Shown in pieces: positions 17,193-44,310 of a stretch of 64,000 nucleotides of DNA. Numbering within the stretch: the stretch's first letter is position 1; each line of letters opens with the position of its first letter. The notes under the pieces were generated by a model, which was not told the DNA's origin, searched no databases, and saw nothing but the letters and a program-made list of their open reading frames with translations. The stretch spans positions 1 to 64,000 of IMG/VR virus record IMGVR_UViG_3300050821_001227; one strand, written 5' to 3'. This DNA is from a virus. The translations under genes were made by a program, and so were the position numbers.

Positions 17193-17199
17193 AAAATGT

Positions 17200-26658: not shown

Positions 26659-26721
26659 CGATCTTCCATCAACATTCGGTGACAGCAAAGCGATTCGCTA
26701 CTGCTAGTCCGAATGCCTCAA

Positions 26722-26764
26722 AGGCGGATGCCCTAACATCCGCCTACTTTCTTTAGGGAGAAAG
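26722..26764 (+). promoter_or_regulatory. kissing-loop RBS element A
   Basis: loops CCCUAA / UUAGGG. Confidence 0.8.
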
Positions 26765-26767
26765 CAA

Positions 26768-27214
26768 ATGAGTTTAGAAACACAACGAGCCGCAAAGCGT
26801 CGTTGGAAAGCCAAACACCCAGAATGGCAAAAGCGTTGGAATGCGGAACATTCGGAGTTAGTTGCTCAAATGTCTCGCCGACAAGCTGCACACTGGAACG
26901 CTGCTCATCCCGAACAAAGAAAAGCGCAGCAGCGTAAAGATAGTAGAAAACGCAAGGCACATAAGCGCAATGCATCGGGAACTTTCACGGAGCAAGAGTT
27001 CAACATTCTCAAAACGTTTTACGGTAACAAGTGCCTTTGCTGTTTGCGTCCCGAAAGGTTGCTTAACGCTCTCGGTATACAGATTGTGCCTGACCACGTT
27101 GTGGCTTTGGCAAAAGGCGGGACTAACGATATCGGAAACATTCAACCGCTTTGTCACGGTAAAGGCGGCTGTAATAACCGCAAAGGCGTAAAGCACGAAG
27201 ACTACCGAGGATAG
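26768..27214 (+). CDS. HNH endonuclease
   Basis: CLCC...DHVVALAKGGTNDIGNIQPLC...CNNRK. Confidence 0.9.
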   Translation: MSLETQRAAKRRWKAKHPEWQKRWNAEHSELVAQMSRRQAAHWNAAHPEQRKAQQRKDSRKRKAHKRNASGTFTEQEFNILKTFYGNKCLCCLRPERLLNALGIQIVPDHVVALAKGGTNDIGNIQPLCHGKGGCNNRKGVKHEDYRG

Positions 27215-27216
27215 CC

Positions 27217-27645
27217 ATGCAATCGACTGTACGCGTGAAAAGAACACAGGCAGCGTACTTTAGAAAGCTGGCCCTCGCGGAAGCAAGGAAGTCGGGCAAA
27301 GAAATTCAAGCGTACTTGGTGGGACATGTTGTCTCACCGCAACTCGTTGTTGTGGACTCGTTCCATTACACGAAGAAGTATGCCGACCAGACCACGTGTT
27401 TCGTGCGCTGGTTCGAAGACGATTATCAAGTCATCAAAGCTGCCGCAGAGGCAGCAGGCAAGCATATCATCGGTGACGCCCACAGCCATCCCGAGTGGGA
27501 CGCGGTATTAAGTCCGACCGATTATATTTCGCACATTCAGGAAGGTTACCGCATCGCGGGAATCTGCTCGACGAACAAGGGCCGCACGCGGCTCCGATTC
27601 TGGGTAGCAGAGAGCGCCCTCCCCCTGAAAATAGAGTATAATTAG
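27217..27645 (+). CDS. JAB/MPN+ metalloprotease domain protein
   Basis: E...HSHP...SPTD JAMM motif. Confidence 0.8.
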   Translation: MQSTVRVKRTQAAYFRKLALAEARKSGKEIQAYLVGHVVSPQLVVVDSFHYTKKYADQTTCFVRWFEDDYQVIKAAAEAAGKHIIGDAHSHPEWDAVLSPTDYISHIQEGYRIAGICSTNKGRTRLRFWVAESALPLKIEYN

Positions 27646-27664
27646 CCATGCTCTGGGAGGAGAC

Positions 27665-27889
27665 ATGAAGCGCCACACACGCGATACCATCATCGCGCAG
27701 ATTAACAAAAAGATAGCCAGCGGCAAAGCGAACAACGCTGAAGTCGTGTTGGTGTGGATGCGCCTCATGTTGACCGAGCCCGAAGTTTGGGGACCACGGT
27801 TCGATAAGTGGTGCACCAAATCGAACAACATCACGCCTGCCGATCAGATACCGGACAACGATCCGTATGCTGGAAACGGAGGCAGATGA
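27665..27889 (+). CDS. hypothetical protein
   Basis: GGAGGAG SD. Confidence 0.6.
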   Translation: MKRHTRDTIIAQINKKIASGKANNAEVVLVWMRLMLTEPEVWGPRFDKWCTKSNNITPADQIPDNDPYAGNGGR

Positions 27890-28155
27890 TGGGCGTCACG
27901 ACCAAGTATGAAATCACTCGCACCGAAGTCGATAGACTCGCGCTGGAGTGGTGCAAGGCGAAGCACGTTGTCGTCATGCTAGACGATGTTGCGAGAAACT
28001 TCGCAAGAGACATCGCGAATAAAGTTCTCCGCGACTTTGTACAGAGTATTGCAGAGATACAAGCAGCGAAAAAAGCAGCAGCTACGGGCGAACCTGCCCC
28101 GGCTGCCGCTCCCGCAGCGACCCCGACGAAACCTTCCATCATCCTGACAGATTGA
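27886..28155 (+). CDS. hypothetical protein
   Basis: GGAGG SD, ATGA overlap. Confidence 0.6.
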   Translation: MMGVTTKYEITRTEVDRLALEWCKAKHVVVMLDDVARNFARDIANKVLRDFVQSIAEIQAAKKAAATGEPAPAAAPAATPTKPSIILTD

Positions 28156-28288
28156 CGCGGAGCCTTAATCTAAACCTGCTCCGCATTCAAAGCGCGGGCA
28201 GTGAGTGAGATTAAGCCTGCCCGCGCTGTAGGGATTCTTATGAAGGGTTAAGTTAGAACATAAATCTGTGGATTCGCTATCTACAGAC

Positions 28289-28335
28289 GGAGGATGTCTT
28301 TCCGGCATCCTCCAAATTCTCACCGGAAGGAGAAT
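28289..28335 (+). promoter_or_regulatory. kissing-loop RBS element B
   Basis: loops UUCCGG / CCGGAA. Confidence 0.8.
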
Positions 28336-28338
28336 AAT

Positions 28339-28884
28339 ATGAACGCACGCTGCATTGATTTGGCAGGTTCAAGGATTGCCAATGGAGAGGTCGAGGTACT
28401 TAGAAAAGTACCCAATCCAAACAGCAATACTAGCACGCAGGCATTTTGGGAATGTCTTTGCTCGTGCGGCAATGTGTTTACGACCGCAGGACAAGCAGCG
28501 CGAAGATTGAAGACTGGATGCAGACGATGCTTCGCCGCCAGAAGCAGGATTATGGGAGCAGCCCTAAGTTTCCTATTTTCGCAGTATCGCAATGAGGCGC
28601 GGCAGGCTGATAGGGCGTTTGAGTTGACGCTTGAAGAGTTCCGAAAGCTGGTCAGCAGCAATTGTGCTTATTGTGGCTTGCAGCCGCAGCAGGTTATTAA
28701 GACTGCACACGATGTGCTCTTGTATAACGGCATCGACCGAATTGACAGCCGAAAGGGTTATGTTATAGGCAACTGCAATCCCTGTTGCAAAATTTGCAAT
28801 TACGCCAAGCACAACAAGTCCAAAGAAGAGTTCTTGATTTGGCTAAAGCGCGCCTACGAGTTCAATTTCGGGAGTACCCTATGA
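28339..28884 (+). CDS. HNH-type endonuclease
   Basis: WECLCSCGN; CAYCG...NGIDRIDS.KGY..GN..PCCKICNYAK. Confidence 0.85.
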   Translation: MNARCIDLAGSRIANGEVEVLRKVPNPNSNTSTQAFWECLCSCGNVFTTAGQAARRLKTGCRRCFAARSRIMGAALSFLFSQYRNEARQADRAFELTLEEFRKLVSSNCAYCGLQPQQVIKTAHDVLLYNGIDRIDSRKGYVIGNCNPCCKICNYAKHNKSKEEFLIWLKRAYEFNFGSTL

Positions 28885-29411
28885 AAGGCGTTCTCGACGG
28901 AGCGGATGGAAAGCCCGTGCTTTACGTAGGAGATGACTCTGATGACGAAGAAGCCCAGAAGCGTGGCTACGCTATACTTTCGGCCTGTAAGGATGGTGCC
29001 TACGGGCATCGTCATTTTCTAGGTTACAAAGAACGCGGAGCGCCGAAAGGCGATCACTACTTCCACGCAACGCGAGGAAAGAGGATGGTCTTAAACCTCC
29101 TCGACTTAGAAGACCCAGAGTTCATCAAGGAAGACGTTATCTTCCCGGCATTGAAGTTCATCAACAAACATCTGAAGGCTGGCGACAAAGTCCTTGTGCA
29201 CTGTAATGCCGGACACAGTCGCGGCCCGACAATCGGGATGATGTTCCTCTGTACAATCGGGGAACTCCCCGGAGGCTTTCTGACATCGGAGAAGGTGTTC
29301 AGGGCGCTGTACCCGAAGTACAATCCCAAAGCAGGTATGAGGACGTTCGCACGGGATCACTGGCAGCAACTAAAGGACAACTTCTATTATGGAACTGACG
29401 AACCTCGCTGA
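28881..29411 (+). CDS. dual-specificity (CX5R) phosphatase
   Basis: VLVHCNAGHSRG. Confidence 0.85.
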   Translation: MKGVLDGADGKPVLYVGDDSDDEEAQKRGYAILSACKDGAYGHRHFLGYKERGAPKGDHYFHATRGKRMVLNLLDLEDPEFIKEDVIFPALKFINKHLKAGDKVLVHCNAGHSRGPTIGMMFLCTIGELPGGFLTSEKVFRALYPKYNPKAGMRTFARDHWQQLKDNFYYGTDEPR

Positions 29412-30054
29412 TCTTGCTGCGAAGTCCAGTATCGCAGCGCCTGACAAAGGCACCGCAGGCGAACTCGGAGCAAAGCAACAGAACGTGGACGAGTACAACA
29501 ACGCAACCAAGCCGACGCCTACGGCAGAACCAGCGAAAGATACAACTCCCTCCCCCAAAGATCGAGTTGCCCCAAAGGCGCGATATGGAGCGCGGCCCGG
29601 AGAGAAGCGAATCGACACAACGTCGATGACGAAACCTCTCGGCAGTTTTGAGAAGGGGACATCACATGTTCCCAAGACCGGAATCTACAAACTGCACGAA
29701 GGCGAAGCAGTGATTCCAAAGGACAAGAACATGGATAGCATGAAAGACAAGATGATGGATTCTCTCGGCGGCGAGAAAAAGCCGAAGAAAGAAATCAAAG
29801 AGATGCACATCCGCAAGACTGCGAATGGCAAACACATCGTCACCCACAAGCATCATCATCCCGAGCATCACCCCGACGAGGAGCACTCCATGGAAGACAT
29901 GGGCGCTCTGCATCAGCACATGGAAGACCACGCTGGTACGCCGAATGACGGTGAAGGCGCAGAGAGCGCACCGCCCGCAGGCGCAGCGCAGATGACAGCA
30001 GCCCCGTCACCCGCAGCCGCACCCGCCGCTGGTGCATCGCCGACAGGCATGTAA
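29389..30054 (+). CDS. His-rich low-complexity protein
   Basis: 221 aa; FEKG..VPKTG...LHEGEAVIP; HKHHHPEHH. Confidence 0.65.
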   Translation: MELTNLADLAAKSSIAAPDKGTAGELGAKQQNVDEYNNATKPTPTAEPAKDTTPSPKDRVAPKARYGARPGEKRIDTTSMTKPLGSFEKGTSHVPKTGIYKLHEGEAVIPKDKNMDSMKDKMMDSLGGEKKPKKEIKEMHIRKTANGKHIVTHKHHHPEHHPDEEHSMEDMGALHQHMEDHAGTPNDGEGAESAPPAGAAQMTAAPSPAAAPAAGASPTGM

Positions 30055-30065
30055 GGAGATTTAAT

Positions 30066-30278
30066 ATGGCTGAGCACAGTCCAGAGGAAAAGGCCCATTT
30101 TGCCCGTTCGATGCATAAATTGCACGGGGGCGCACTTCACAGACATTTCGGAATACCAGAGGGAGAAACCATCCCTGAAGAAAAGAAAGAAGAAGCCGCC
30201 AATAGTTCCAATCCTCACGTAGCGGCCATGGGACGCATGGCGAAAGCTATGGCAGGATGGCATCACGGCAGTAAATAA
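30066..30278 (+). CDS. small hypothetical protein
   Basis: AAGGAG SD; HGGALHRHFGIPEGETIP. Confidence 0.65.
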   Translation: MAEHSPEEKAHFARSMHKLHGGALHRHFGIPEGETIPEEKKEEAANSSNPHVAAMGRMAKAMAGWHHGSK

Positions 30279-30298
30279 GCCATCGCATCGGAGGATGT

Positions 30299-32392
30299 AT
30301 GGCTGGTGAACTGGAGATTCTACAGGCTGAGTTTGTAGCAGCCTTCCAGAACAAGAACTATCAACACAAAGGAATGCCAGAAGATGAGTACGACACTCTG
30401 GCATTGACGGCATTTGGTCACTACACGAATAAGCAGCAGTTCGATGCGATGCAGTCGTGGGTGATTTTCAATGGCGGAAAGCGCAAGGCTGGACTCCCGG
30501 CTCCCGGCAGTTGTGAATACGATCATCTGCGGCTAACGGTTGCGCGTTATCGCTTCATGTGCCAGACGAACCTGTTCTTCCTTTGCAAGATGTTGGGTTA
30601 CTCCAAAGTCACCGACAGAGAGTACAACTGGTTCAATCCCCAGACAAAGGGTTGGGAGACGCACAACACGCACGAGGAAATCTGTAACGAGTTCTTTGTG
30701 CCGAAAGACCCGGCGCACTTCGCCACCTTCGAAGCGTTCGCGACCGACGCGACCGCGAAGAGAATGTACAAGCAGCGATTGCTGCTCGTTCCTCGTGGCG
30801 GATTCAAATCGTCCATCAACATGGCCGACTGCGTTCAGTGGATTCTGTGTTTCCCTGAAGTCACCATCGGCATCTTGACTGGAAAGTTAGGATTGGCTGA
30901 AGACTTCGTCGGAGAAGTCAAGGCGCACTTCACCCTTGATGAGAACTTCGAGAAGGACAGCGAGTACAAGGGCTTCCGCCCGCGACTCCTGACAAACAAG
31001 TTCACAGGCGCTCAAACCGTATCTATGCTTCAGGTGTTGTTTCCCGAGCATTGCGTAAAGCCTCAAGAAGGCAAAGCCACTGAGTTCCAGACACCCGCCG
31101 TCACGGCTGGTGACAAAGAGCCAACGATTCGCGCTACAGGTATTGAGCAGTCATTGGCTGGATCACACTTCTGCTTACTGAAGCTGGACGACGTGGTCAC
31201 CGAAGAGAACGTTGAGACCGTAACCCGCATTGAGGGCATCAATCACCGCATCGGTGTTGACAAAGCCTTGATGCACGCATTCGGTTTCTTCGACGTAATC
31301 GGTACGTGGTACGATGAGAGAGACTACTACGGTAAGCAAATCGCTTACGACGACAAGTTGTTCTTGGCTTCACAGCGCAACCCGGCGATGAAGATTTACC
31401 GCCGCGCTGTATGGTGGCCAACCGCCGAATGCTTGGCGGCTGGTAAGATTGAGTCCGAGTGGACTGAACAAGACGTACATCTCTGGTTCCCCGCAGTTCT
31501 AACGTTCGACTTGATGAAAGCGTCGGCGATGACGGAGCCCGATGTATTTGCCATCAAGTATCTGAACGATCCTCGTCAGATCAACAAGATTAAGTTCCCG
31601 CGCGAACTCTTGATTCGCCGCACGATTAACCATAATCTGTGCCCGCATCAAGGCATGATCGTTACGACCGTGGATACGGCCTACTCGACGCAGAGTTGGG
31701 CAGACTATACCGTCATCATGACGGCAATCATCCATGGCGGGAGATTCTACATCATCAACATGGTGCGCGGAAGGTTCAACGAGTACGAACTTCCAGCGGT
31801 CATCGCGACTGTCGGGTATAAGTGGAAGCCGAAGCAGATCATCATCGAGGAGGTGATGGGCACTGCATTCGTCAAACGCGAAATCCGGCGCGAGATGGAA
31901 AAGCTGAAGATTAGTATTCCGCTCCGTAGCGCAGGTCTGGGTCAAGGCAACAAAGCCAGATCGAAATCCATGAAAGCCAAGCCAGTCCTGAGACTGCTTG
32001 GCGACCAACGCATGTTCTTCGTCAACTCTTGTGAAAGTCTCGAAGAAATTTATACCGAGATGTCTCAGTTCACTGGGACAGCGGACGACAAGCATGACGA
32101 CATCATCTCAGCAATTTCTCTGCTGGCTGAGGTCTTCGCGCCGTACGCGGACATGCACTCACAAATTAACGCGGTTGAAACTTCGTACGCGGCGGACGCG
32201 CAGTCTTACGAGCATCACCAGATGATTTACGGTCTGGGTAAGTACGCTCAACAGAATCCGGCCTTCGCAACGGATGACAACCCGAACACGCAGTTTCAGT
32301 TAGAGCAGGCCGCGCAGGCCGTTGAGCAGTCCGACGATAATCCGTTGGATGACTTGTTCGGCGGTGACCGTGCGCTGAAGACGGTGATCTGA
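30299..32392 (+). CDS. terL: terminase large subunit
   Basis: PRGGFKS, LKLDDV, IGTWY, nuclease VDTAY...DYT, HDDIISA. Confidence 0.92.
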   Translation: MAGELEILQAEFVAAFQNKNYQHKGMPEDEYDTLALTAFGHYTNKQQFDAMQSWVIFNGGKRKAGLPAPGSCEYDHLRLTVARYRFMCQTNLFFLCKMLGYSKVTDREYNWFNPQTKGWETHNTHEEICNEFFVPKDPAHFATFEAFATDATAKRMYKQRLLLVPRGGFKSSINMADCVQWILCFPEVTIGILTGKLGLAEDFVGEVKAHFTLDENFEKDSEYKGFRPRLLTNKFTGAQTVSMLQVLFPEHCVKPQEGKATEFQTPAVTAGDKEPTIRATGIEQSLAGSHFCLLKLDDVVTEENVETVTRIEGINHRIGVDKALMHAFGFFDVIGTWYDERDYYGKQIAYDDKLFLASQRNPAMKIYRRAVWWPTAECLAAGKIESEWTEQDVHLWFPAVLTFDLMKASAMTEPDVFAIKYLNDPRQINKIKFPRELLIRRTINHNLCPHQGMIVTTVDTAYSTQSWADYTVIMTAIIHGGRFYIINMVRGRFNEYELPAVIATVGYKWKPKQIIIEEVMGTAFVKREIRREMEKLKISIPLRSAGLGQGNKARSKSMKAKPVLRLLGDQRMFFVNSCESLEEIYTEMSQFTGTADDKHDDIISAISLLAEVFAPYADMHSQINAVETSYAADAQSYEHHQMIYGLGKYAQQNPAFATDDNPNTQFQLEQAAQAVEQSDDNPLDDLFGGDRALKTVI

Positions 32393-32622
32393 TGAGCGAT
32401 ATAGAAATCATACCCGCGAATCCGCCGATCAACTCGGCGCGTATCAACCAATCGCGAGTCATCAACACTACGCTGTCTCTACGGGACCGCAGACAAGAAC
32501 CAGTAGTCATCCCGCCTCCTCCGGTTGACGAGAAAGTAGAAGTGCTGAAGGTACAACGACGGCACTTCGTAGCACCAGAGATAAGCGCACCGGAGCAAGT
32601 ATTCCGGCGCACCCGGCGCTAA
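32392..32622 (+). CDS. hypothetical protein
   Basis: TGATG coupling between terminase and portal. Confidence 0.55.
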   Translation: MSDIEIIPANPPINSARINQSRVINTTLSLRDRRQEPVVIPPPPVDEKVEVLKVQRRHFVAPEISAPEQVFRRTRR

Positions 32623-32640
32623 CTTAGGGAAAGGGGGCGT

Positions 32641-34770
32641 ATGGCTCAGTTACCAATCGATGGAAATCCAAATCGCGCCCTCACTGAACAGGACTATAAG
32701 GTCTCTGGAGAGTTGAAGTCCGACGCGGCAGCGGTAGCCCTAGTCAACGGTTGCGCAACCGCAGCCGAGCAGTTTATTTCGAACAAGCAGTGGAACCTGC
32801 TGTGGCGCGATAGCGATCTTTTGTATCAATCGCCGCGTCCTATGTCGGTGTACGAGAACACGTACATCTTGGAACCGAACGTTCAGCGGTTCACGGTGGC
32901 GAAGGTTGTGAACGCAATCGTCCCTCAGCTTTACAAGGGACTGTTCTACGACGATCCACCGATGTTAATGCGGCCTATGCCGGGAACTGAGCAAGCTGAA
33001 GTTGACGCCAAGACGGCGGTCTTCTCCTACTTGCTGAACGCTTGTAACTTCAAGCGCAATACCAAGTGGGGACTTGAACAGATGGCCCACCTTGGAACGG
33101 GCGTCTGGAAGTGGGGAATCCGCTATGAGAAAATAGTCGTCAAGACTCGTAAGCCAACCGTCTATAAGGACGGCGACAATCCGGCAGTGCCAACGTTCGA
33201 TAAACCGGACATTGAGAGAAAGATTCGAGTTGTGCCGCGACCGTTCTTCGAGTGGCGTCCGCTCGACAAAGTATTCTTTGATCCAAACACGCGAGTGGGC
33301 GATGCCCGCGAAGCGCGATGGGCAATCGACATCCGCAACCTCGACTTCTATGAAGTCCTTGCGATTAAGAGAGCCATCGAAGGTCTACCCGACGATGCGG
33401 AAGAACGCAAGGGTTGGATGTGGCCGGGAGATGGTTCCGACAGGGCTCTACAGCAATTGTGGATGCCGCCAGTCGAACAAGGTGCGATTGAGTTGATGTC
33501 TGACTCATCCACCCATGTCACAGAGATTGTCCACCATTCATTGGACGATTCACAAAATTCCACGCCGGATATTCTCCGACGCAAGATGGAGTTGCTGGAG
33601 TATTGGGACAAGGGTCGCAAGATCATCGTCCTCGACCGCAAGAAAGCGATTTACACTGGCAAGAATCCGTTCGCCGAAATCGGTATCGAGAACTGCATTC
33701 CGTTCCTTTCCGCCAACTGGTGGAACCGCCCGAAGGCGTTTTACGGAATGGGCCTCGGTCTAATCGTTGGTCAGAACCAGCGCGTAGATCAGGGTACGAT
33801 CAACTCGATCCTGAAGATATTGTCATTTGGTGTCAACCCAATCTATCTGCGCCGACGCGATTCCAATACGCCAACACAGATGATTCGAACAGGTATCGGG
33901 CGAATCCTCACCGTTGATGTTAAAGAAGGTCGGCCAGTCGGCGATGCTTACGGCATCCTCGAACAGCCGAAGGTGCCATCCGAAGTCTGGGCAGCACTCA
34001 GTGAATCTGAAAAGAACACTGAGTCTACATCAGGCGCAGATGCGCAGTTGGTGCAAGGTAGCAGCGCTGGTCCCCGCAGTTCGATGGGCCGCACTGCAAC
34101 AGGAGCCTCGCAACTCGGCGCAGCAAGCGCAACTCGGTTGGACGGTCCTCTCGATAACTTCATCGAGCAGGTGTTCACGCCATTCTTGTACATCTTGGAC
34201 GACTTGGTTGAAGAGTACCTTTCCGATGGTGAGATTCACTTCATCTGCGGAGAAGAGTTGGGCAAGGCATACATGCTCAACTTGGCACGGTACCACGAAG
34301 CCAAGATGGAGTTTGAAGTGCTGGCGGGCGCAAGCCTTTCCGCCAAGCGCATCATGGCTCAGTCCCTGACGCTCATCACGCAAATATTTGAGAACCCGCA
34401 GATTCAACAGAACCTCGCGGAAATCAACGGAGAGTACATCGACTTCAAGCCGATACTCTCGATGTGGATGGAAGCGTCGGAGTGGAAGAACCGCAACGAC
34501 ATCATCAAGAAACTTACGCCGGAAATGAAGCAGGCTCAACAGGCAAAGTCAGCGCAGGCACAGGCAAACAGCAAGCTGCAAGCGCAACAGTCTTTGAACA
34601 CGCAGAAGTTCCAGCAGAAACAGCAGTTAGAGGACCAAGCGAACCAGAACCGCGTACAGCGGGACATTGTTCGTGAGTCTTTCCGCAACTCGGCCATGAG
34701 CGAAGCAGTTACAGGACAGCCAAGCGCAGGCGGCTTGGAAGGTTCCGCTGAGACAGGCTCAGTTGTGTAA
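32641..34770 (+). CDS. portal protein
   Basis: 709 aa after TerL; GTGVWKWG, FYGMGLG, RTATG, Gln-rich C-terminal helix. Confidence 0.88.
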   Translation: MAQLPIDGNPNRALTEQDYKVSGELKSDAAAVALVNGCATAAEQFISNKQWNLLWRDSDLLYQSPRPMSVYENTYILEPNVQRFTVAKVVNAIVPQLYKGLFYDDPPMLMRPMPGTEQAEVDAKTAVFSYLLNACNFKRNTKWGLEQMAHLGTGVWKWGIRYEKIVVKTRKPTVYKDGDNPAVPTFDKPDIERKIRVVPRPFFEWRPLDKVFFDPNTRVGDAREARWAIDIRNLDFYEVLAIKRAIEGLPDDAEERKGWMWPGDGSDRALQQLWMPPVEQGAIELMSDSSTHVTEIVHHSLDDSQNSTPDILRRKMELLEYWDKGRKIIVLDRKKAIYTGKNPFAEIGIENCIPFLSANWWNRPKAFYGMGLGLIVGQNQRVDQGTINSILKILSFGVNPIYLRRRDSNTPTQMIRTGIGRILTVDVKEGRPVGDAYGILEQPKVPSEVWAALSESEKNTESTSGADAQLVQGSSAGPRSSMGRTATGASQLGAASATRLDGPLDNFIEQVFTPFLYILDDLVEEYLSDGEIHFICGEELGKAYMLNLARYHEAKMEFEVLAGASLSAKRIMAQSLTLITQIFENPQIQQNLAEINGEYIDFKPILSMWMEASEWKNRNDIIKKLTPEMKQAQQAKSAQAQANSKLQAQQSLNTQKFQQKQQLEDQANQNRVQRDIVRESFRNSAMSEAVTGQPSAGGLEGSAETGSVV

Positions 34771-34870
34771 GACAGGAGGGGCAGGGATTCGCCGACGTGG
34801 CGAGTCCTCCTAGCCATCTTTCAAATAGGTGACTAGGTCCGCCCCGTTATATCTCTGGGAGGAGACGATT

Positions 34871-35269
34871 ATGGTTGACCCCGATCTGGAGTTGACACCA
34901 ACCGAGCGATCCGATCTTGCGATGATGTTCCAAAGTAAAGGATGGCAGGTTGTACTGAAGTTGTTCCGCATCATTGTCGAGCAGTTCCGAGTGGACTTAG
35001 ACAATGCCGATCACGCGAATCCCAAAGATGTGCTTGCAAAGCACGCGCTCTCCCGAGCGGCTGGTACCGTGGTCACAATCATCATTCACCGTATCGCTCA
35101 GGAAGTCGCATCTCTCCAAGAGGCGCGAAGCCGCCAAGGCAGCCCTGAGAACCCACAAGAATCTGCTCCCGGCCTAGAAATGGACGCGATTGAGCACGCA
35201 GTAGAAGGACTACCCAACCTGCTGGGCGATGTAACCTACATCTCCGAAGAGGACGATGACGAGCGTTGA
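34871..35269 (+). CDS. conserved head-region protein
   Basis: SKGWQVV motif, between portal and scaffold. Confidence 0.65.
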   Translation: MVDPDLELTPTERSDLAMMFQSKGWQVVLKLFRIIVEQFRVDLDNADHANPKDVLAKHALSRAAGTVVTIIIHRIAQEVASLQEARSRQGSPENPQESAPGLEMDAIEHAVEGLPNLLGDVTYISEEDDDER

Positions 35270-35283
35270 GGAGCGCTAAGACA

Positions 35284-36615: not shown

Positions 36616-36673
36616 AGAACTCCCGTTGTATCTCTCTGGGAGGAGAGTGAACAACAGAAAGATTGGATAATTT

Positions 36674-38641
36674 ATGACGGGTTATAGTCCCGCAATTAAC
36701 AATCAGTCGAACCTCCCGCAATCGACTGTGAAGTATTCATAGTACTTCTCCCTAGCATTCGATTGCGTAGTAAATGTATGACAAGAAGTTCAGGGAAAAC
36801 TTGAAGGCCCAGACTCCCTTCGTGGCTTGTTCAGAACGTTTGGATTTGCCGATGAAGTCTGGTAACCAGTATGAGATTTCAGAAACATGATAGTCCCATA
36901 CAGTTTAAAATCTTGCTAAATCGGTGAAGGTCTGTTAAAATCAGATAATACCGAGGAAACTTGTGAAACGAAAGACAGCACAGTACATGGCGGGACTTAT
37001 GGACGCGGAAGGAATGTTCGACATCGAACGTGCCTTCAGAAGCGATGATAGGAACTGCTACAACTATACCGTAAAGATTGTGCTTACCAATACAAATATT
37101 GCCCTGATGAAGTGGGCCGTTAAGTACTTTGGGGGCGTTTACAAAAAGCGCAAACCTGAGGTTGGTAAGAAACAAGCTTATGATTGGATAATCTCTAATC
37201 AGAAGCACGGGCTGTCGTTCATCTCCCAAATATTTCCGTTCCTTGTGGTCAAAAGAGCAGAAGCACAAACGTTAGTTGACTACTATGCCATGTATGGCAA
37301 AGAGTTTCCAGAACGACGTGAACAACTGTTCTTCAAAAACAAAGAATTGAAATGGGACAAAAGTTCCGTAACGACTGACATGCAAGATATCTCTAATGCT
37401 TATGCGGCAGGGTTTGTAGATGGCGACGGGAGTATAGACACTCCGCACCGTTTAGCAGTATCCAACGCATGCAAAGTCTTGATTGATTTGTTCAAAGCAA
37501 CGTATGGCGGGTCGTATTATTTGGATGTCCGTGAGGAACCAAATCAAAACGATTCTCACGTGTGGTATCTTTCTAATCCTACAAAGGTTGAAAAGATAGT
37601 GCTTTCGTGGCTGCCATACTTGATTGATAAACATCATCGAGGCGAACAGGTGCTAAAACGCCTGCGAGATAAAGATACAGTCTGAACTAACGGGCGACCG
37701 TTAGAGTGAACCTGACGGAAGTCAGGGTTACGAAGCCGTTCTGGTTTCGTATTCATCCAAAACACAGTTGGTTCATGTACGTTCCGTTGGCAGCCAACAC
37801 TTCGACCACCGTTGAAGGAACCGTTGGGACTTCCATTCCGGTCAGCGTGCTGAACACCACCGCTGTCATCGGCGAATACGCCGACTACGCTAACTTCTCC
37901 TCGCTGTCTTTGGCCACTGCCATCGACAACACCGTCGAGAACGTCGCGAAGGAACTGTCGTACCGCTTGGGCGAGTCTTTGAGCGCTCTGGTTCGTGCGA
38001 CCGCAGACGGCGCGTCCGCCATCGACTCCAGCGTGCTTGTTGAACTGGGTGCTACCAGCACTTCCAGCTTCACCGCTCTGTCTTTGAGCCAAATCCGTAA
38101 CTCTGTCCAGTCTCTGGCAGGTCGTTCGGTTCGGCCCTTCGATGAAGCAAGCAAAGCATTCTGCGGTGTCATCCATCCGTTCGCCCTTGGCGACGTTCTG
38201 GCTGACAACAGCAACGATTCGCCGCTCGACATGTTGAAGCACACCCCCGTGGGTATGGCCAAGATGGAAGAGTTGGTGAGCGTTGATCTGACCGAGGTCA
38301 TTGAATTGCCCGCTTCTGGCGTGCATTTCTTCCAGACCAACCAGATCACCACGACTTCGAACTATCAGACTGTCACTGGTCTGACGGCTCTCCGCACCTA
38401 CATCTTCGGGCGCGATGGTATCTACTCCATCAACCTTGGAGCACAGGGCGACACCGGGTTCGGCGACGGTGAATGGCAGAACATTAAGTGCAACATCAAG
38501 CAGAACGTTGAACCCAGCGTTGCTGACCCCGAAGGACTCATCCCCGGATGGACTTCGTATCGTGTGCACTTCACCACGTCTCTCGGACCTGACACGACCA
38601 TTCGCCAGCGCCAGATCGACGCGGCTAGCGCCATTTCCTAA
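36674..38641 (+). CDS. major capsid protein, spliced join(36674-36736,36777-36877,37771-38641), 344 aa
   Basis: joined exons read ...STVKYYDKKFRENLK...SGNQYEMFMYVPLAANT...VIHPF...; position after scaffold; resembles N4-gp56-like capsids. Confidence 0.85.
36737..36776 (+). other. 40-nt coreless group-I-like mini-intron
   Basis: P1 GAAGUAU/GUACUUC with U.G at the 5' site; P10 UCAUA/UAUGA; terminal G; carries in-frame stop; removal restores the frame. Confidence 0.75.
36878..37770 (+). mobile_element. group I intron carrying a LAGLIDADG homing endonuclease
   Basis: P1 UAUGAGAU/GUCCCAUA (U.G); P3 36910-16/37382-88; P4 UCGGUGAA...AAUACCGAG; P7 GUAACGACUG/AAGAUACAGUC; P9.0 AACU/AGUU; terminal G at 37770. 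Confidence 0.92.
36963..37685 (+). CDS. double-motif LAGLIDADG homing endonuclease
   Basis: YMAGLMDAEG and YAAGFVDGDG. Confidence 0.92.
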   Translation: MKRKTAQYMAGLMDAEGMFDIERAFRSDDRNCYNYTVKIVLTNTNIALMKWAVKYFGGVYKKRKPEVGKKQAYDWIISNQKHGLSFISQIFPFLVVKRAEAQTLVDYYAMYGKEFPERREQLFFKNKELKWDKSSVTTDMQDISNAYAAGFVDGDGSIDTPHRLAVSNACKVLIDLFKATYGGSYYLDVREEPNQNDSHVWYLSNPTKVEKIVLSWLPYLIDKHHRGEQVLKRLRDKDTV

Positions 38642-38649
38642 AGGAATCT

Positions 38650-39120
38650 ATGGCACTAAAAAACGTACCCAAGTCTCCTGAGCACCGCGCCAAGCTTATT
38701 CAAGTTTTGGAGCGTACTTGGGAGAATAGACCTAACAAGCACAAGATTCAAGCGATTGATAAAGTCGCAATGACTGGCTGCTGTGTCACCTGTGGTCAAG
38801 TTCCTTTGAAAGTAGTACGTCATCGGAACAACAAGCAGGGATATGTTAGAGACCAGTATCTATGCTGGGTCGGTTCGCTACGAAGCGGCGAAGCACAAGT
38901 TTCCTATGCGGGTCAGGCACTAGAAATGCTTGACTCGCAGAAGGGTAACTGCGCTTTGTGCGAACAGCCTCTTGACCGTTTTGACATGGTTTTAGATCAC
39001 GACCATGAAACGAAACTCATTCGCGGGTTTCTTCATCAAAACTGTAACAAAGGGCTAGGCATGCTTGGAGATAATCCGAGCATTCTCAAACGAGCCATCG
39101 ACTACCTAACAAAGAAATAG
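38650..39120 (+). CDS. endonuclease VII-family HNH protein
   Basis: QKGNCALC...LDHDHET..IRGFLHQNCNKGLG. Confidence 0.88.
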   Translation: MALKNVPKSPEHRAKLIQVLERTWENRPNKHKIQAIDKVAMTGCCVTCGQVPLKVVRHRNNKQGYVRDQYLCWVGSLRSGEAQVSYAGQALEMLDSQKGNCALCEQPLDRFDMVLDHDHETKLIRGFLHQNCNKGLGMLGDNPSILKRAIDYLTKK

Positions 39121-39139
39121 ACAACGAAAGGACATCAAC

Positions 39140-39697
39140 ATGGCAGATACACAAGAATCGTATCCTACCCCGACTACGGGGAAAAACCTGCCTCTCTTCA
39201 TGGAACTGTCGGGTCAGGGCGTAACGAACGCCAACCCTCAGACGGGTTCGGGCGCTTTGGTCGGTGGAAACAACACCTACAAAGTCACCCTGTCCGTTGC
39301 CAATTCCCAGAAGGCGAATGTGTCGGCGACCGTTGTTGTGACGGTGAACTTGTTTGACCTTGCGGGAACTGCGCAAGGCATCAAGAGTTCCGTTACCGCA
39401 GTGTCGTACAATGCCGCTCCGACCAGTTCGAGCGGGACGCAGGAATCGTACCCGGCCCCTCTCACCACCATTGGCGAGATTGCGACCGTGGGAACGGTGT
39501 CGTACTCAGCTTCGGCTGGCACGGCCACCATTACCCCCATCACTCCGGGGCAAGCAGTTGTGGAGTTCGAGTATCCGTTCGGTCTGAATGCGAACAACAC
39601 CGCAGCCGTCGAACCGGGGCCGCAACCCGGTGGCGCTCTCGGGTTCCAGCAGAACGACATGGTGTACTCCCAAATCCTAGTCCAAGTTATCCCTTGA
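39140..39697 (+). CDS. putative capsid decoration/Ig-like protein
   Basis: Thr/Ala/Val-rich beta protein after capsid gene. Confidence 0.55.
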   Translation: MADTQESYPTPTTGKNLPLFMELSGQGVTNANPQTGSGALVGGNNTYKVTLSVANSQKANVSATVVVTVNLFDLAGTAQGIKSSVTAVSYNAAPTSSSGTQESYPAPLTTIGEIATVGTVSYSASAGTATITPITPGQAVVEFEYPFGLNANNTAAVEPGPQPGGALGFQQNDMVYSQILVQVIP

Positions 39698-39741
39698 GGA
39701 TTTGGGATTCACAAGATTCACAGACGTTATAAACCTGTGGA

Positions 39742-39785
39742 GAGGGGCTGTTCGAGCAGTCCCTCACTTCTTCTCGAAAGGAAGT
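39742..39785 (+). promoter_or_regulatory. kissing-loop RBS element C
   Basis: loops UUCGAG / CUCGAA. Confidence 0.85.
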
Positions 39786-39787
39786 AC

Positions 39788-40252
39788 ATGAAACACGAAA
39801 CAGAAGCAGAACGTTTGGCGTATAACGCCTATTACCGAAACTATCGCAAGCAGTGGTCTCCTGAGATGAAGGAGAAAGAACGGCAGCGTAAGCGAGATTG
39901 GATTGCAGCACATCCAGAGCAGCATCGTACAAACACTCGTCGTGCTGCGCGAAAGCGCCGGATTATAATTCAAGCGCATCCCGAGTTTCAAAAAGCAGCA
40001 CAGGTTCAGTTCAACCATTCAATAAGTCTGGAAGAATATGAATGTAGGCTGCGCGACCAAGGCGGCATTTGCCGTCTTTGTAATAAGCCGTTCACGGACG
40101 ATAATCCTCCCGTGCTCGACCACAATCACGACACTGCGCAGTTGCGAGATTTTATCCATCGGCAATGTAATGCGGCTCTTGGATTATTTAAAGACAGTGT
40201 TGAGGTTTGCAAGTTGGCCGCTGAATATTTAGAGCGGCACAGTAGAGGATGA
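39788..40252 (+). CDS. endonuclease VII-family HNH protein
   Basis: QGGICRLC...LDHNHDT..LRDFIHRQCNAALG. Confidence 0.88.
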   Translation: MKHETEAERLAYNAYYRNYRKQWSPEMKEKERQRKRDWIAAHPEQHRTNTRRAARKRRIIIQAHPEFQKAAQVQFNHSISLEEYECRLRDQGGICRLCNKPFTDDNPPVLDHNHDTAQLRDFIHRQCNAALGLFKDSVEVCKLAAEYLERHSRG

Positions 40253-40272
40253 ATCTCTGGGAGGAGAAGATC

Positions 40273-40575
40273 ATGGACGGTGAGGAGTACGTCATGGCGC
40301 AGCAGATTATTGCTGGCCAAAAAAGTTTGGTTGTACAGGCGTTAGAAGAAACGGTCGAAGAGTTGCGCGGCGAGATTGAGTTTCTTAAAGAGGAAAACAA
40401 GCGGCTGCGAAATGTTTCCAAAGCAACGCGCATGACCAACCGCAAGGTTAGAGCCGACGTGAAGGCTTTGGTCGATCAAGTCGAAGAGATGGGACAACAT
40501 ATCATGGACATCGCCGTCGAAGAGGCGGCACAAGAGGATTTGGGCAGCACGTCCGCTTCGGAACCGACGACTTAG
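40273..40575 (+). CDS. coiled-coil hypothetical protein
   Basis: GGAGGAG SD, heptad pattern. Confidence 0.6.
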   Translation: MDGEEYVMAQQIIAGQKSLVVQALEETVEELRGEIEFLKEENKRLRNVSKATRMTNRKVRADVKALVDQVEEMGQHIMDIAVEEAAQEDLGSTSASEPTT

Positions 40576-40746
40576 CCATCATACGAATCGTCAGTTCATG
40601 GTTGGACACAAGGACACGTACACGAAGGCCAAGGGTACGGCGTCGGTCGGCACCTGTTGTGGGAAGTCATGAGCCCCGGAGGACCGATTCTCAAATAATG
40701 GCGTAAGGCTCTAATTCTTAAGAGCCTGCTTAGGAAGAGGAGCCTA

Positions 40747-41463
40747 ATGCCATCAAACAAAGATTTATTGGCGCAACGCGCCGAAGAACAAGCAGAGTTC
40801 AACAAGCAGGTTGACCTACTGCCGATGCCCGAATTGACAGATGAACAAATTGCTCGTACCCAAGGGACGAGAAAGTCAGAAAAAGCCCCGTGGGAGACTT
40901 ATAACGAGCAGATGACAGAGACGCTTGACCCGGAGCTAGAAGCGGCCATCGCAGAGTTCGCTTCGCATGACCCGCACGGGCACACCGATTCCCAGACGCA
41001 AGAAGAACTCTGTCGAATCAAAGAAGAGAACGACAACCTCGCACGGGACTACCAATGGTTGAGTCCGGACGAGTACGAAGATGAGAAGGCCCGCATAGGC
41101 CGCATCATGCACTCCTCGGAGCTAATCAAAAAGCTGACCGAAGAATGCCGTTTGAACGCACGGTACAAGTCCCACCCACAGCCAAAGCGTATCACGCTTC
41201 TGGTTGATATTACCCAAGGCATAAAAGGCATGGAAGTTGCCTGTTGGGTACAGTTCGGGTACATGCCAGAGTTCAGCATCTGCAATTTCGATGACCACGG
41301 AGTTGTATTGCAGGAGGCATATCGCGGCTGGCGCACAGTGTTGCTCCAGTTGCTGGTCAAACGCATGATTGACGAGGAAACAATCAATCGCGTGTTCGGA
41401 GAAGCGGTTGGTCCGGCATCAAGGAAATATAACCAACTCGTGCAAGGATTTAGAAAGGGCTGA
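40747..41463 (+). CDS. hypothetical protein
   Basis: 238 aa, GAGGAG SD, RGWRTVLLQL. Confidence 0.7.
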   Translation: MPSNKDLLAQRAEEQAEFNKQVDLLPMPELTDEQIARTQGTRKSEKAPWETYNEQMTETLDPELEAAIAEFASHDPHGHTDSQTQEELCRIKEENDNLARDYQWLSPDEYEDEKARIGRIMHSSELIKKLTEECRLNARYKSHPQPKRITLLVDITQGIKGMEVACWVQFGYMPEFSICNFDDHGVVLQEAYRGWRTVLLQLLVKRMIDEETINRVFGEAVGPASRKYNQLVQGFRKG

Positions 41464-41474
41464 GGAGACCCCAT

Positions 41475-42155
41475 ATGAGCAACGTCAACAATCAAGAAGA
41501 TATCAACGAAGTACACAAAGTAGTCGCAAAAGTCATCAAAGAACAGACCCCGGCACAAGCCGAGCGCGTCGAAATCGTCCGAGCCATATCCGAGATGTCC
41601 ACGGAGGAAATCAACCGGGAACTGGCGGCGAAAGAACTGCAACTGAAGCGCCTCGAATTGATGGAGCGCGAAGCCAACTTGGAAGACATCCGAGAACGTC
41701 TCGCGGACCGCAAGCTGAAGCGTAAGAGCCAAGGCGATGTGTTCCGTGGCCACGGTCAGAACCTGAAGCAGGGTGCGATTAACCGCGTAGCGAAGCAGAC
41801 GATCTGTAACCACCGCAAAGGTGGAGACGGCGCGAATGGCGTCATCGGCGGACAAGGCGATGACATGCAGTACGCGATTCTGCGGCACATCATGGGCAAT
41901 GGCGACATTTGGATTCGCTGCCTGCGCTGCGGCAAGACTTGGAAGCGACCGCTTCTGAACGGAAGAACCGAAGCCGAAATGAAGGCTTCAGCGGAATGGG
42001 CCGAGTACGATTTGATGCTACGCGCTCAGACCCGAAACCACACGTCAGGCACGCATACGTTCCAATGGGGCGTAGTGCAAAATGCCGAGACAGGCAAGTT
42101 GGAAGGCGGGCCAGAGTTCTACAGAGAGAAAATGAAATCTGTGACTTTGGAGTAA
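41475..42155 (+). CDS. coiled-coil plus zinc-finger protein
   Basis: CNHRKGG...CLRCGK. Confidence 0.7.
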   Translation: MSNVNNQEDINEVHKVVAKVIKEQTPAQAERVEIVRAISEMSTEEINRELAAKELQLKRLELMEREANLEDIRERLADRKLKRKSQGDVFRGHGQNLKQGAINRVAKQTICNHRKGGDGANGVIGGQGDDMQYAILRHIMGNGDIWIRCLRCGKTWKRPLLNGRTEAEMKASAEWAEYDLMLRAQTRNHTSGTHTFQWGVVQNAETGKLEGGPEFYREKMKSVTLE

Positions 42156-42170
42156 TCGCCCACGAAGTAA

Positions 42171-42210
42171 AGAGGGATGGGCACAAACGCTCGTCCCTCT
42201 ATTTTTTATT
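42171..42210 (+). terminator. intrinsic terminator
   Basis: AGAGGGATGGGC-acaaac-GCTCGTCCCTCT then T-tract. Confidence 0.7.
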
Positions 42211-42219
42211 GGAGACAAC

Positions 42220-43551
42220 ATGACAGGTCAAAATTCCACCATCACGCTACAAGATATTTCGGACCAAGCGAGTTCCTTTGGAGACATAGCTCCCGCACTG
42301 GCAACAGGCGGTTACTCGACGCAGCCCGCCCAAAGCATCGCGAACGACGTGATGACGGCATTCCTGCAAGGTACAGGGGACGGCAACCCGTTCAACTGGA
42401 AGTTCAACAGCTTCAACGTCACACCGTTCTACACGATTAGTCTTCAGCAGGACTATTTCGTACCCGGCGTCGTGAACTTGGGCTGGCTCGAATCCTCGTA
42501 TGCGATCAACATCAACCAGACGAGCAATCCGAAGCAGAAGTTGTATCAGGAAGTTCACCGTGCGGAGGAAGTCACCTTCGACCAGACAGGATACCCCGGC
42601 AAGATTTGTTGGATGCAGAATGATACGATGCAGTCAGGTACATGGGGACAAACGCAGTTGGCGTCACCCAGCGGCCTGCTGAACCCCGGCGTAGGAGTTG
42701 AGTATATCAACCCGGCTGGCGCTCCGCAGAACCCGACCAACCCGACAACCTGCATCACGGACCCTTACGGCAACCTCTGGGCTGTGACGTTCGGTGTCAA
42801 TCAGGCAACCGCGACATGCGGAACCTTCAATCCGTTCAAACCTATTGTGACGGCGACTTCGGTCACCAGCAATGTAATTACGGTCACGGCGCAGCACAGT
42901 TTGTCTGTCGGTACGCAGGTCAAGCTGCAAGGCACCGCCGAGTCTGGCGTCAACGGCCAACTGTTGACCATCGCTACTGTCATCGGAAGCGCTCCTAACT
43001 ACACAGGCTTTACGGCAGCGCTGACCATCGGCAACTACAGCAACGCTTCAGATACGGGCAATGTTCAGATCGTGCCCGCATACCCGGTGTATCAGGCCGG
43101 GAATCCTTCAGTCTCTAGCACCGTGGCGACCACGGTTGCTGATGGCACTGTTGTTTGGACAGCGGTCAACCCAAAGGGTCAAGGATTCAGATTGAGTCCC
43201 ATCCCTCCCAACAGCGGAGTCGTTTGGCAGGTCAACCCGGTCGCGCAGATGCGCGTACCGCGCTTCAGTTCGATGCAGCAGACTCTCGAACCGATTCCTG
43301 ATGACTGGGAGATGTTCTTCAAGAACGGCTTCTACGCACAATGCTATCGGCACAGTCCGGACCCGAAGGTTCGTCTGAAGTTCAAAGACGAATGGGCGCT
43401 GTTTATGCAGTCGCTCGACAACGCAGTCAAGCAAGGACAGCGTGAGACAGACGATTTTGGATTTTACCCCGGATCACCGGGCGTTATGGACACTGGGTTT
43501 TGCATCAATCCTGTTAATCCCGCGTGGCCGTACGGCCCTTATTGGGGCTAG
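42220..43551 (+). CDS. putative head-tail adaptor/virion protein
   Basis: PFNWKFN and PIPDDW motifs shared with 47698-48651. Confidence 0.6.
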   Translation: MTGQNSTITLQDISDQASSFGDIAPALATGGYSTQPAQSIANDVMTAFLQGTGDGNPFNWKFNSFNVTPFYTISLQQDYFVPGVVNLGWLESSYAININQTSNPKQKLYQEVHRAEEVTFDQTGYPGKICWMQNDTMQSGTWGQTQLASPSGLLNPGVGVEYINPAGAPQNPTNPTTCITDPYGNLWAVTFGVNQATATCGTFNPFKPIVTATSVTSNVITVTAQHSLSVGTQVKLQGTAESGVNGQLLTIATVIGSAPNYTGFTAALTIGNYSNASDTGNVQIVPAYPVYQAGNPSVSSTVATTVADGTVVWTAVNPKGQGFRLSPIPPNSGVVWQVNPVAQMRVPRFSSMQQTLEPIPDDWEMFFKNGFYAQCYRHSPDPKVRLKFKDEWALFMQSLDNAVKQGQRETDDFGFYPGSPGVMDTGFCINPVNPAWPYGPYWG

Positions 43552-43553
43552 TG

Positions 43554-43633
43554 TGGTATAATATTATCGCAGTGTCGCACATTGCGGTAGGGAGCACGAC
43601 TTTCAACGTGCTCCCGTTCTTTTGAAAGGGAAC
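43554..43633 (+). promoter_or_regulatory. extended -10 promoter plus kissing-loop RBS element D
   Basis: TGgTATAAT at 43554-62; loops UUUCAA / UUGAAA. Confidence 0.8.
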
Positions 43634-43635
43634 AA

Positions 43636-44133: not shown

Positions 44134-44309
44134 CCCCGCAGTTTCTCTCAATAAATCACAACGGAGAAGGCCGCTTTGAGGTAATAGCACGGTCCGCTCC
44201 CATGGGCGATGAGGCGTATGGCGCGACGGCAGCCGTTGTGTTGAATGCCAAACAACTTCGTGAACTGGCTGAGACGCTGTTCTCCTTCGCATGCACGAGC
44301 GGAGCCTGA
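44094..44309 (+). CDS. hypothetical protein
   Basis: GGAG SD, 71 aa. Confidence 0.5.
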   Translation: MQHNIFAFTDIGLAPQFLSINHNGEGRFEVIARSAPMGDEAYGATAAVVLNAKQLRELAETLFSFACTSGA

Positions 44310-44310
44310 C

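Follow-up and report, generated by a model that had tools for sequence, protein, structure and literature searches.

A covarying three-hairpin leader before phage homing-endonuclease genes, a candidate translational attenuator

Hairpins that sequester the ribosome-binding site (RBS) limit translation of I-TevI, I-TevII, I-TevIII, segB and Aeh1 mobE (PMC2988022). These RBS-sequestering hairpins of T-even homing endonuclease genes are the nearest described system to the element reported here, a leader of consecutive hairpins (H0, H1 and H2) that stands immediately 5′ of four nuclease genes in a 64,000-base stretch of viral DNA (the window), the first 64,000 bases of the 83,210-base IMG/VR virus record IMGVR_UViG_3300050821_001227. 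The likeness is that a structure just 5′ of a phage homing-endonuclease gene hides the Shine–Dalgarno sequence (SD) and limits translation from long read-through transcripts (PMC2988022), an effect that is predicted for the leader. The T-even hairpins are single and are relieved by a late promoter inside the hairpin (PMC2988022), whereas in the leader the loop of a separate hairpin can pair with the SD region in a pseudoknot topology. The leader further differs from them in its extra conserved hairpin H0, in forming one family across HNH, EndoVII and GIY-YIG-type genes, and in having no evident internal promoter, only an A/T box before H0.

Other RNAs share parts of this design. SD-masking pseudoknots occur in riboswitch expression platforms such as preQ1-II and SAM-II, where initiation is blocked when the SD pairs with a hairpin loop or a 3′ tail. 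These platforms are built around a conserved pocket for the ligand; the leader shows no such pocket, and the letters that pair in it are free to vary. The repZ/repA pseudoknot of IncI-alpha/IncB plasmids likewise brings together a hairpin loop and a sequence next to the RBS, in competition with a local stem that hides the RBS. Its effect is to activate translation, under the control of an antisense RNA and of leader-peptide translation, and neither control is seen at the leader. Loop–loop kissing in TAR-TAR*, ColE1 RNAI/RNAII, HIV-1 DIS and phi29 pRNA takes place between molecules or distant hairpins. The leader has the fully complementary 6–7-nt loops of these complexes, and one form of its H0 loop (type 2, below) has the 2+6+1 layout of a palindromic dimerisation loop, but its two hairpins touch, separated by a linker of 0–3 nt. 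In Guanidine-II (mini-ykkC) RNAs, two neighbouring small hairpins lie beside the RBS and their loops interact (PMC9300104). The loops of the leader (CCCTAA, TCTTTCCGG, TTCGAG and ACTTTCAA in the four window copies) are variable, 6–9 nt long, and joined by 6–7 Watson–Crick pairs over the 0–3-nt linker. Guanidine-II loops are conserved ACGR tetraloops that pair through the ligand and have longer linkers; the leader has no ACGR loops. Searches of Rfam at the four window sites returned nothing at gathering scores or at E ≤ 10, so that the element stands outside the described Rfam families, as had been suspected, and literature searches found no description of it.

We consider it reasonably probable that each site is the 5′ leader of a free-standing homing-endonuclease cassette and that this leader is a portable, cis-acting translational attenuator of pseudoknot type. 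The proposal starts from direct observation of the anatomy of the leader, its non-random occurrence, its covariation, its link to nuclease genes and its membership of cassettes.

Recurrence and covariation of the leader

In the minimum-energy fold of each of the four copies, called A to D (RNAfold, 122 nt around the start), H0, H1 and H2 follow one another. H1 consists of a GC-rich stem of 8–9 bp and a loop, L1, of 6–9 nt. After a linker of 0–2 nt comes H2, with a stem of 6 bp that holds a purine-rich SD in its 3′ arm in all four copies, and the ATG follows 2–3 nt later. L1 and the loop of H2, called L2, are exact complements over 6 nt in copies A, B and C and over 7 nt in copy D (CTTTCAA/TTGAAAG). 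An earlier reading of the window, made from its letters without database searches (the sequence-only reading), had described this shared architecture of three hairpins and had quoted the letters and coordinates of the four loop pairs, all of which agree with the sequence.

A strict descriptor of the double hairpin (stems of at least 7 bp in H1 and 5 bp in H2, no more than 4 nt between the two hairpins, and 6 or more complementary nucleotides in the loops) finds exactly these four sites on the + (gene) strand of the window and none on the − strand, compared with a mean of 0.075 sites per window in 40 dinucleotide shuffles. It finds no further site in the whole 83,210-base record. Relatives were scanned in 80 metagenome loci (923,912 bases) around portal homologues of 54–91% identity and in an 85-kb related record, G002. 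This material contains many more leaders, each of them on the gene strand. From related phage and metagenome DNA the table compiled here lists 36 distinct leaders, and 7 others were noted in addition.

The loops of these leaders differ and stay complementary, which bears out the description of the element as a structured RNA module with covariation. The homologue nearest to gene B (loci L013/L029, 61% amino-acid identity) is preceded by a near-identical H0 and by an H1 with one compensated stem pair, while its loops, CTTAGAA/TTCTAAG as against TTCCGG/CCGGAA in copy B, are wholly different and still complementary. Complementarity is likewise kept before the homologues of 47% identity (L030, CTATCT/AGATAG) and 44% identity (L038, CCATAGA/CTATGG). 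Among the distant relatives of gene B, the strict and relaxed descriptors applied to the 80 loci found a leader only at L029, L030 and L038, and a looser later scan added one at L047, where the homologue is 38% identical. Searches of viral_contigs returned no relatives of genes C and D, and in the cultured relative Tunturiibacter phage Tunturi_3 no leader precedes the endonuclease VII or HNH genes.

MAFFT alignments of the four copies and of 22 leaders were structurally wrong, and purpose-written descriptor scripts were used instead; an 83-column covariance-model alignment was left out of the pseudoknot counts because loop lengths differ between its rows. A covariance model was built from a gapless four-row alignment, and a model of H1 only found leaders that the descriptor had missed. 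Those at L156:7390 and L171:6743 have the same H1 stem and linker, with loops CTTTCAT/ATGAAAG and CCTCAAT/ATTGAG. In the gapless alignment of four leaders, 64 of 64 cells pair and 5 of the 7 L1:L2 pairs change on both sides, against 41–55% of paired cells in a control with partners slid by 1–3 columns; since the four rows were chosen for complementarity, the count of 64/64 shows diversity and is not an independent test.

Scans that used no loop criterion gave the following proportions. A loop complement of at least 6 nt is present in 19 of 106 candidates defined by a double hairpin, a start codon and an open reading frame (ORF), compared with 0.24% of permuted loop pairs, and in 29 of 305 candidates defined by a hairpin, an SD and a start codon, compared with 1.15% on permutation. 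Of the latter 29, 24 were judged to be leaders and 5 to be chance. These five, at G000 68869, G000 −70018, G002 17289, G002 −35698 and L171 7537, were set aside as chance or as an ordinary terminator, and AT-rich descriptor matches in L095 and L106 were judged to be chance. Retrieval by the H0 sequence alone yielded 86 distinct contexts among the matches listed; where H0 is followed by a hairpin and a start codon, a 5–7-nt complement lies beside the start in 16 of 24 contexts, again among the matches listed, and all four distinct contexts with a type-1 H0 (see below) and an intact H1 have a complement of 6–7 nt. A pattern scan for type-1 H0 gave 25 stretches in 21 distinct contexts, most of them without the H0 stem and taken as chance.

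Predicted pairing of the H1 loop with the Shine–Dalgarno region

The Watson–Crick run between L1 and the downstream sequence measures 7 nt in 24 of the 36 tabulated leaders, 6 nt in 10 and 5 nt in 2, with 29 distinct L2 cores. L2 typically ends in AAGG, after which AGA follows. The complement ends 5–10 nt before the start codon in 33 of the 36 leaders and thus reaches into the usual position of the SD, in agreement with the earlier statement that the leader covers the ribosome-binding region. In the best fold of H2, L2 is fully unpaired in 8 of 36 leaders and contributes 1–5 bases to the H2 stem in the other 28. The energy of H2 lies between 0 and −6.8 kcal/mol in 35 of 36 leaders, and that of the L1:L2 duplex between −5.2 and −13.0 kcal/mol. 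A ‘GCAT’ subfamily, found through H0 and located before HNH genes, displays an H1 of 13–15 bp, a ‘GCAT’ linker and no separate H2; its complement is the SD itself (L221, L205, L304), as in the pair CTCCCTT/AAGGGAG. The leader at G002:20251 also has no H2 and has a complement of 8 nt. Because H2 is weak, overlapped or absent while the complement is kept, the conserved feature is the loop-to-SD pairing. What stays constant across the family is an H1 loop matched to the SD region, whereas H2 is optional, and the wording ‘kissing loop’ under which the element had first been described is not supported.

From these features we infer a pseudoknot in preference to a kiss. The stable, GC-rich H1 would display a loop with 6–7 nt complementary to the SD region of the nuclease gene, and pairing between the two would create an H-type pseudoknot. 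In the subfamily represented in the window, the pyrimidine-rich linker may in addition pair with the 3′ half of the SD, forming the weak local hairpin H2. Either pairing would mask the RBS, so that read-through transcription from the packaging and structural genes around it would yield little nuclease. The two pairings are best pictured as alternative or competing states of one lock, which would not amount to a simultaneous intramolecular kiss.

A true intramolecular kissing loop, in which H1, H2 and a 6–7-bp loop–loop helix form simultaneously in one RNA and lock the SD, appears quite unlikely. It would agree with the exact mutual complementarity of the window loops, with the 6-bp register of H2 in which the L2 of all four window copies can fit wholly within the loop, and with the 8 of 36 leaders whose L2 is fully unpaired. 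However, fully paired loops of 6–7 nt in solved kissing complexes are quasi-coaxial and hold their stem bases far apart, and a linker of 0–3 nt could therefore not join the two stem bases. With the loops fully paired and no bases to spare, both stems and the loop–loop helix would hardly coexist in one molecule. Moreover, in 28 of 36 leaders part of L2 falls within the H2 stem, and the ‘GCAT’ subfamily and G002:20251 keep the complementarity but have no H2.

The competition between the two pairings in 28 of 36 leaders would also be compatible with a regulated switch or activator, in which the L1:L2 pseudoknot keeps the anti-SD linker off the SD and thereby opens the site, as in the repZ pseudoknot of IncI-alpha plasmids, with a factor bound to H0 choosing the state. 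In copies B and C the complement is indeed located 5′ of the SD core and the linker is the real anti-SD, and the H0 loop is conserved while its stem covaries, as expected of a binding site. Nevertheless, L2 includes the first 3–4 bases of the SD (AAGG) in most leaders and is the SD itself in the ‘GCAT’ subfamily, so that the pseudoknot would mask the site rather than free it. Copies C and D have no conserved H0 loop, the factor is hypothetical, and we regard activation as improbable.

The H1 stems of copies A, C and D are terminator-like, which raises the question of a transcriptional insulator, in which H1 and a T-rich tract would act as a leaky intrinsic terminator, or as a processing site, and keep upstream transcription out of the nuclease gene. 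The H1 of copy B, however, is not listed as terminator-like, terminator-like sites are as numerous as in shuffles (22 versus 21.7), and no T tract is present in the ‘GCAT’ subfamily. A contig from an RNA library runs from 27873 to 28396 without a difference, a stretch that takes in the upstream gene, leader B and 58 nt of gene B. Insulation would in any case leave the match of the loop to the downstream sequence unexplained, and is very unlikely.

Several points weigh against the proposed attenuator. Translational repression is predicted from the position of the leader only. The 6-nt complement of copies B and C stops just short of the SD core on its 5′ side, and GGAG would stay unpaired in a pseudoknot that lacked H2; copy B reaches the SD only via a 9-nt extension that contains a G–U pair. 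In the ‘GCAT’ subfamily an H1 of 13–15 bp has to be spanned by a linker of 6–7 nt, which by our own estimate is at the limit for a pseudoknot. The terminator-like stems of copies A, C and D count here as well. The RNA-library contig across leader B fits read-through transcription, but such libraries can hold DNA. The set of leaders was partly selected by complementarity, and neither the table of 36 leaders nor the four-row alignment is an independent test. Finally, at least five nuclease genes of the same phage have no leader (36963–37685, 38650–39120, 44245–44565, 57335–57805 and ~71932 of the full record), the last four of these being EndoVII-family genes, and the leader is therefore not required by every such gene. 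The gene at 38650 has a simple SD hairpin only (ATTCC...GGAAT), and in a relative's contig it is skipped as a cassette (38634 to 39124).

Nuclease genes, mobile cassettes and the H0 hairpin

Thirty-six of the 39 ORFs behind leaders match homing-endonuclease PHROGs, 30 of them of HNH/EndoVII and 6 of GIY-YIG type; no match was found for the ORFs at L173 (99 aa), L158 (82 aa) and L156:8807. For comparison, 8 of 281 ORFs preceded by a hairpin without a complement resemble these nucleases, some of the 8 being alternative parses of leader genes. The strict linkage to nucleases is the only feature in favour of an RNA that is bound by the nuclease itself, as the sequence-only reading had entertained, or used by it, whether guide-like or as an autoregulatory operator. 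Since one leader design heads three unrelated types of gene (HNH, EndoVII and GIY-YIG type) and its loops differ in each copy, such a role is extremely improbable. A separate observation concerns L171 6743–6850, where an intact leader is followed by an ORF of only 17 codons; this site resembles a nuclease cassette that has decayed while retaining its leader.

The module had also been said to travel with mobile nucleases, and contig joints and junction letters place it inside the cassettes. Contigs of related DNA at 85% likeness skip from 26673 to 27213, from 28237 to 29040, from 39558 to 40253 and from 38634 to 39124, with sides of 30, 73, 30 and 176 letters, respectively, short-sided joints at this likeness being able to mislead. 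The loose ends of a relative's contig at 28237 and 40253 agree with the skipped joints. The junction letters fit the joint at cassette B: in the relative, 28237 is directly followed by an SD and ATGAAGGGC, while in the window it is followed by a remnant, ATGAAGGG, and then by the leader and gene B, so that cassette B is located within the beginning of the next gene. At cassette A the left joint (26673) is the first base of H0, which makes the leader part of the mobile cassette; as the relatives' DNA contigs skip the cassettes, the leader travels with the nuclease gene. The cover given by RNA-library contigs (little or none over most nuclease gene bodies, upstream genes covered, one end at 39737 in the H0 of copy C) was not used, missing cover being no evidence.

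The stem of H0 covaries and its loop is conserved, in two related forms. Type 1, GATTCGCTA, is present in copies A and B and in several relatives; type 2 is GACTAATTA and variants, and the 6-nt palindrome UAAUUA is part of its loop, ACUAAUUAC. The H0 loops of copies C and D are of other kinds. Among the matches listed, the H0 loop is identical letter for letter in phage contigs from many samples. We take H0 to be a conserved accessory module whose loop may either bind a partner or pair with itself. Pairing of the H0 loop with 16S rRNA segments reached at most 6 nt by eye and was dropped, and no pairing of the 3′ arm of H0 with H1 was seen by eye.

These properties of H0 would allow a regulated or self-associating switch common to a ‘regulon’ of selfish nuclease genes. 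The leader would then be more than a passive lock: the loop of H0 would either bind a universal partner, be it the ribosome, an RNase or a phage protein, or mediate dimerisation through its palindrome, and reciprocal L1/L2 kissing between two transcripts would result in dose-dependent silencing of the nuclease. We hold this to be unlikely. As regards intermolecular pairing in particular, a reciprocal L1/L2 kissing dimer of two transcripts, or a dimer through the H0 loop, would silence the nuclease in a concentration-dependent manner. The short linker would close an antiparallel dimer neatly, H1, kiss and H2 having equal length in both stacks of the presumed geometry, and the type-2 H0 loop ACUAAUUAC offers its palindrome UAAUUA. 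Conversely, subfamilies without H2 cannot form the reciprocal dimer, the type-1 loop is not self-complementary, and an invariant palindrome offers no covariation; such dimers are very unlikely indeed.

H0 is also found beyond these leaders. The 15-mer CGGACTAATTACCCG gave at least 120 matches in viral_contigs and at least 120 in genome_contigs. In viral contigs, among the matches listed, it always lies in a hairpin, and most of its contexts belong to a different leader class (loci L190–L305, for example L210 537–612) that precedes genes starting MHYYQF or MHYYKF. In that class H0 lies inside a P1 helix, and an internal TCTCCC can pair with the SD GGGAGA. The MHYYQF-gene class with H0 (CGGACTAATTACCCG) matches RF02996 int-alpA over its full length, below threshold (20.5 bits versus a gathering score of 35.8). 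The window leaders have no match to RF02996 at E ≤ 10, and they differ from it in architecture (P1 enclosing two hairpins) and in downstream genes; in 12 loci bearing H0, Rfam returned nothing at gathering scores. Among the genome_contigs matches listed (L334–L453), 44 of 80 titles are metagenome-assembled genomes of Elusimicrobia type, in which the CGGACTAATTACCCG loop tops a 13-bp stem within a longer CAGCCG...CGGCTG helix. This element is ~150 nt long and multicopy, present in many contigs per genome. Other genome matches are leader-plus-HNH units, for example in Agromyces cerinus DSM 8595, whose unit (locus L411) has a ‘GCAT’-type leader and is identical to L221, and many matches without a flanking stem are probably chance.

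The four copies and their surroundings in the window

All features of the four copies are on the + strand. In copy A, H0 (26673–26715; CATTCGG...CCGAATG, from sequence and RNAfold) encloses an inner hairpin with the conserved GATTCGCTA loop at 26692. H1 (26722–26745, flagged as terminator-like) has a 9-bp GC-rich stem and L1 CCCTAA at 26731–26736, and the segment 26747–26767 comprises the anti-SD arm CTTTCT, L2 TTAGGG (26753–26758), the SD arm AGAAAG and the spacer to the ATG at 26768. In copy B, H0 (28265–28287; TCTGTGGAT-TCGCT-ATCTACAGA, from sequence and RNAfold) is preceded by ATAAAT at 28260–28265 and contains GATTCGCTA at 28271, the loop that had been reported as common to A and B. The H1 of copy B (28289–28313, from sequence) consists of an 8-bp stem and the loop TCTTTCCGG, with TTCCGG at 28300–28305; read directly from the sequence, this loop can pair over 9 nt with CCGGAAGGA, one G–U included. 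Its H2 (28316–28338; ATTCTC/GAGAAT) has the loop ACCGGAAG with CCGGAA at 28323–28328, the SD GGAG and the spacer to the ATG at 28339.

Copy C starts with an H0 (39717–39741; TTCACAG...CTGTGGA, from sequence and RNAfold) whose loop is outside the conserved types. Its H1, GAGGGGCTG-TTCGAG-CAGTCCCTC, flagged as terminator-like, and its H2, ACTTCT-TCTCGAAA-GGAAGT, occupy 39742–39787 with the spacer to the ATG at 39788, and the complementary loops are TTCGAG (39751–39756) and CTCGAA (39773–39778). In copy D, H0 (43565–43589, from sequence and RNAfold) is an 11-bp stem with a CGC triloop. H1, GGGAGCACG-ACTTTCAA-CGTGCTCCC, and H2, GTTCTT-TTGAAA-GGGAAC, span 43590–43635 with the spacer to the ATG at 43636, the 6-nt loop complements being TTTCAA (43601–43606) and TTGAAA (43622–43627). 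An own promoter had been assigned to copy D: the extended −10-like box TGGTATAAT (43554–43562, a sequence match only) is there, 2 nt 5′ of H0, but it is absent from the list of a two-hexamer promoter scan. An A/T box (ATAAAT, TATAAT or TTAAAT) is present 0–3 nt before H0 in many leaders, and no conserved promoter box was found inside H1 or H2.

The genes behind the four copies are dissimilar, as had been claimed, Pfam identifying A, C and D and PHROGs identifying B. Gene A (26768–27214, +) encodes an HNH endonuclease of 148 aa (PF01844, E 1.4e-5; phrog_1035, 4.4e-14). Gene B (28339–28884, +) encodes an HNH/EndoVII-type nuclease of 181 aa, which matches phrog_1035 (endonuclease VII, 8.6e-20) and has no Pfam match at E ≤ 0.01; its stop overlaps the ATG of the next gene at 28881. 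Genes C (39788–40252, +; 154 aa) and D (43636–44133, +; 165 aa) belong to the endonuclease VII family (PF02945 Endonuclease_7, 1.8e-13 and 1.1e-22), and the stop of gene C overlaps the ATG at 40249 of the following ORF. The region lies among packaging and head genes, with the terminase large subunit at 30299–32392 (phrog_38) and, at 32641–34770, a gene with 74% nucleotide identity over 369 bases to the one annotated as portal in Tunturiibacter phage Tunturi_3. The completeness of the 83,210-base phage record is estimated at 86%, and the DNA runs that hold the window stretch are labelled as soil or peat metagenomes.

Other features of the record were noted in passing. A second two-hairpin element, at 28157–28227, follows the stop of the upstream gene and precedes leader B, and its loops contain the 8-nt complements CTTAATCT and AGATTAAG; at L013, the homologous locus, what complements the first loop (CTTCAGC/GCTGAAG, read by eye) lies just past the second hairpin instead. 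A probable group I intron at 36733–37770 contains the HNH gene 36963–37685 (phrog_5046, 2.9e-24). At this site an RNA-library contig joins 36877 to 37771, skipping 893 letters, and also 36736 to 36777, a relative's DNA contig has 105 other letters in place of 36733–37770, and the Rfam Intron_gpI match at 37565–37704 is weak (19.8 bits, E 0.3). As intron-less DNA alleles exist, splicing of 36733–37770 is not proven. A permuted (two-piece) tmRNA gene is located at 17163–17564 on the − strand (Rfam tmRNA_permuted, 74.4 bits, E 2e-12), with the tag peptide ATTKPLAMAAAA according to ARAGORN. Outside the window, at ~71700–71900 of the full record, the letters resemble by their appearance two tRNA-like genes upstream of a short EndoVII-like ORF.

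Homing endonucleases rank with the most frequent selfish genes that phages carry, and restraint of their expression is known only for a few T4-type cases. The leader is small and portable, absent from Rfam and common to nuclease folds that are unrelated, and the phages and prophages in whose DNA it is found have very different hosts. In phage genomes it can serve as a marker of free-standing cassettes of homing endonucleases and of the 5′ edges of these cassettes. With a loop and an SD-side partner that vary as a matched pair, it is predicted to be a natural, sequence-programmable module for masking the SD.

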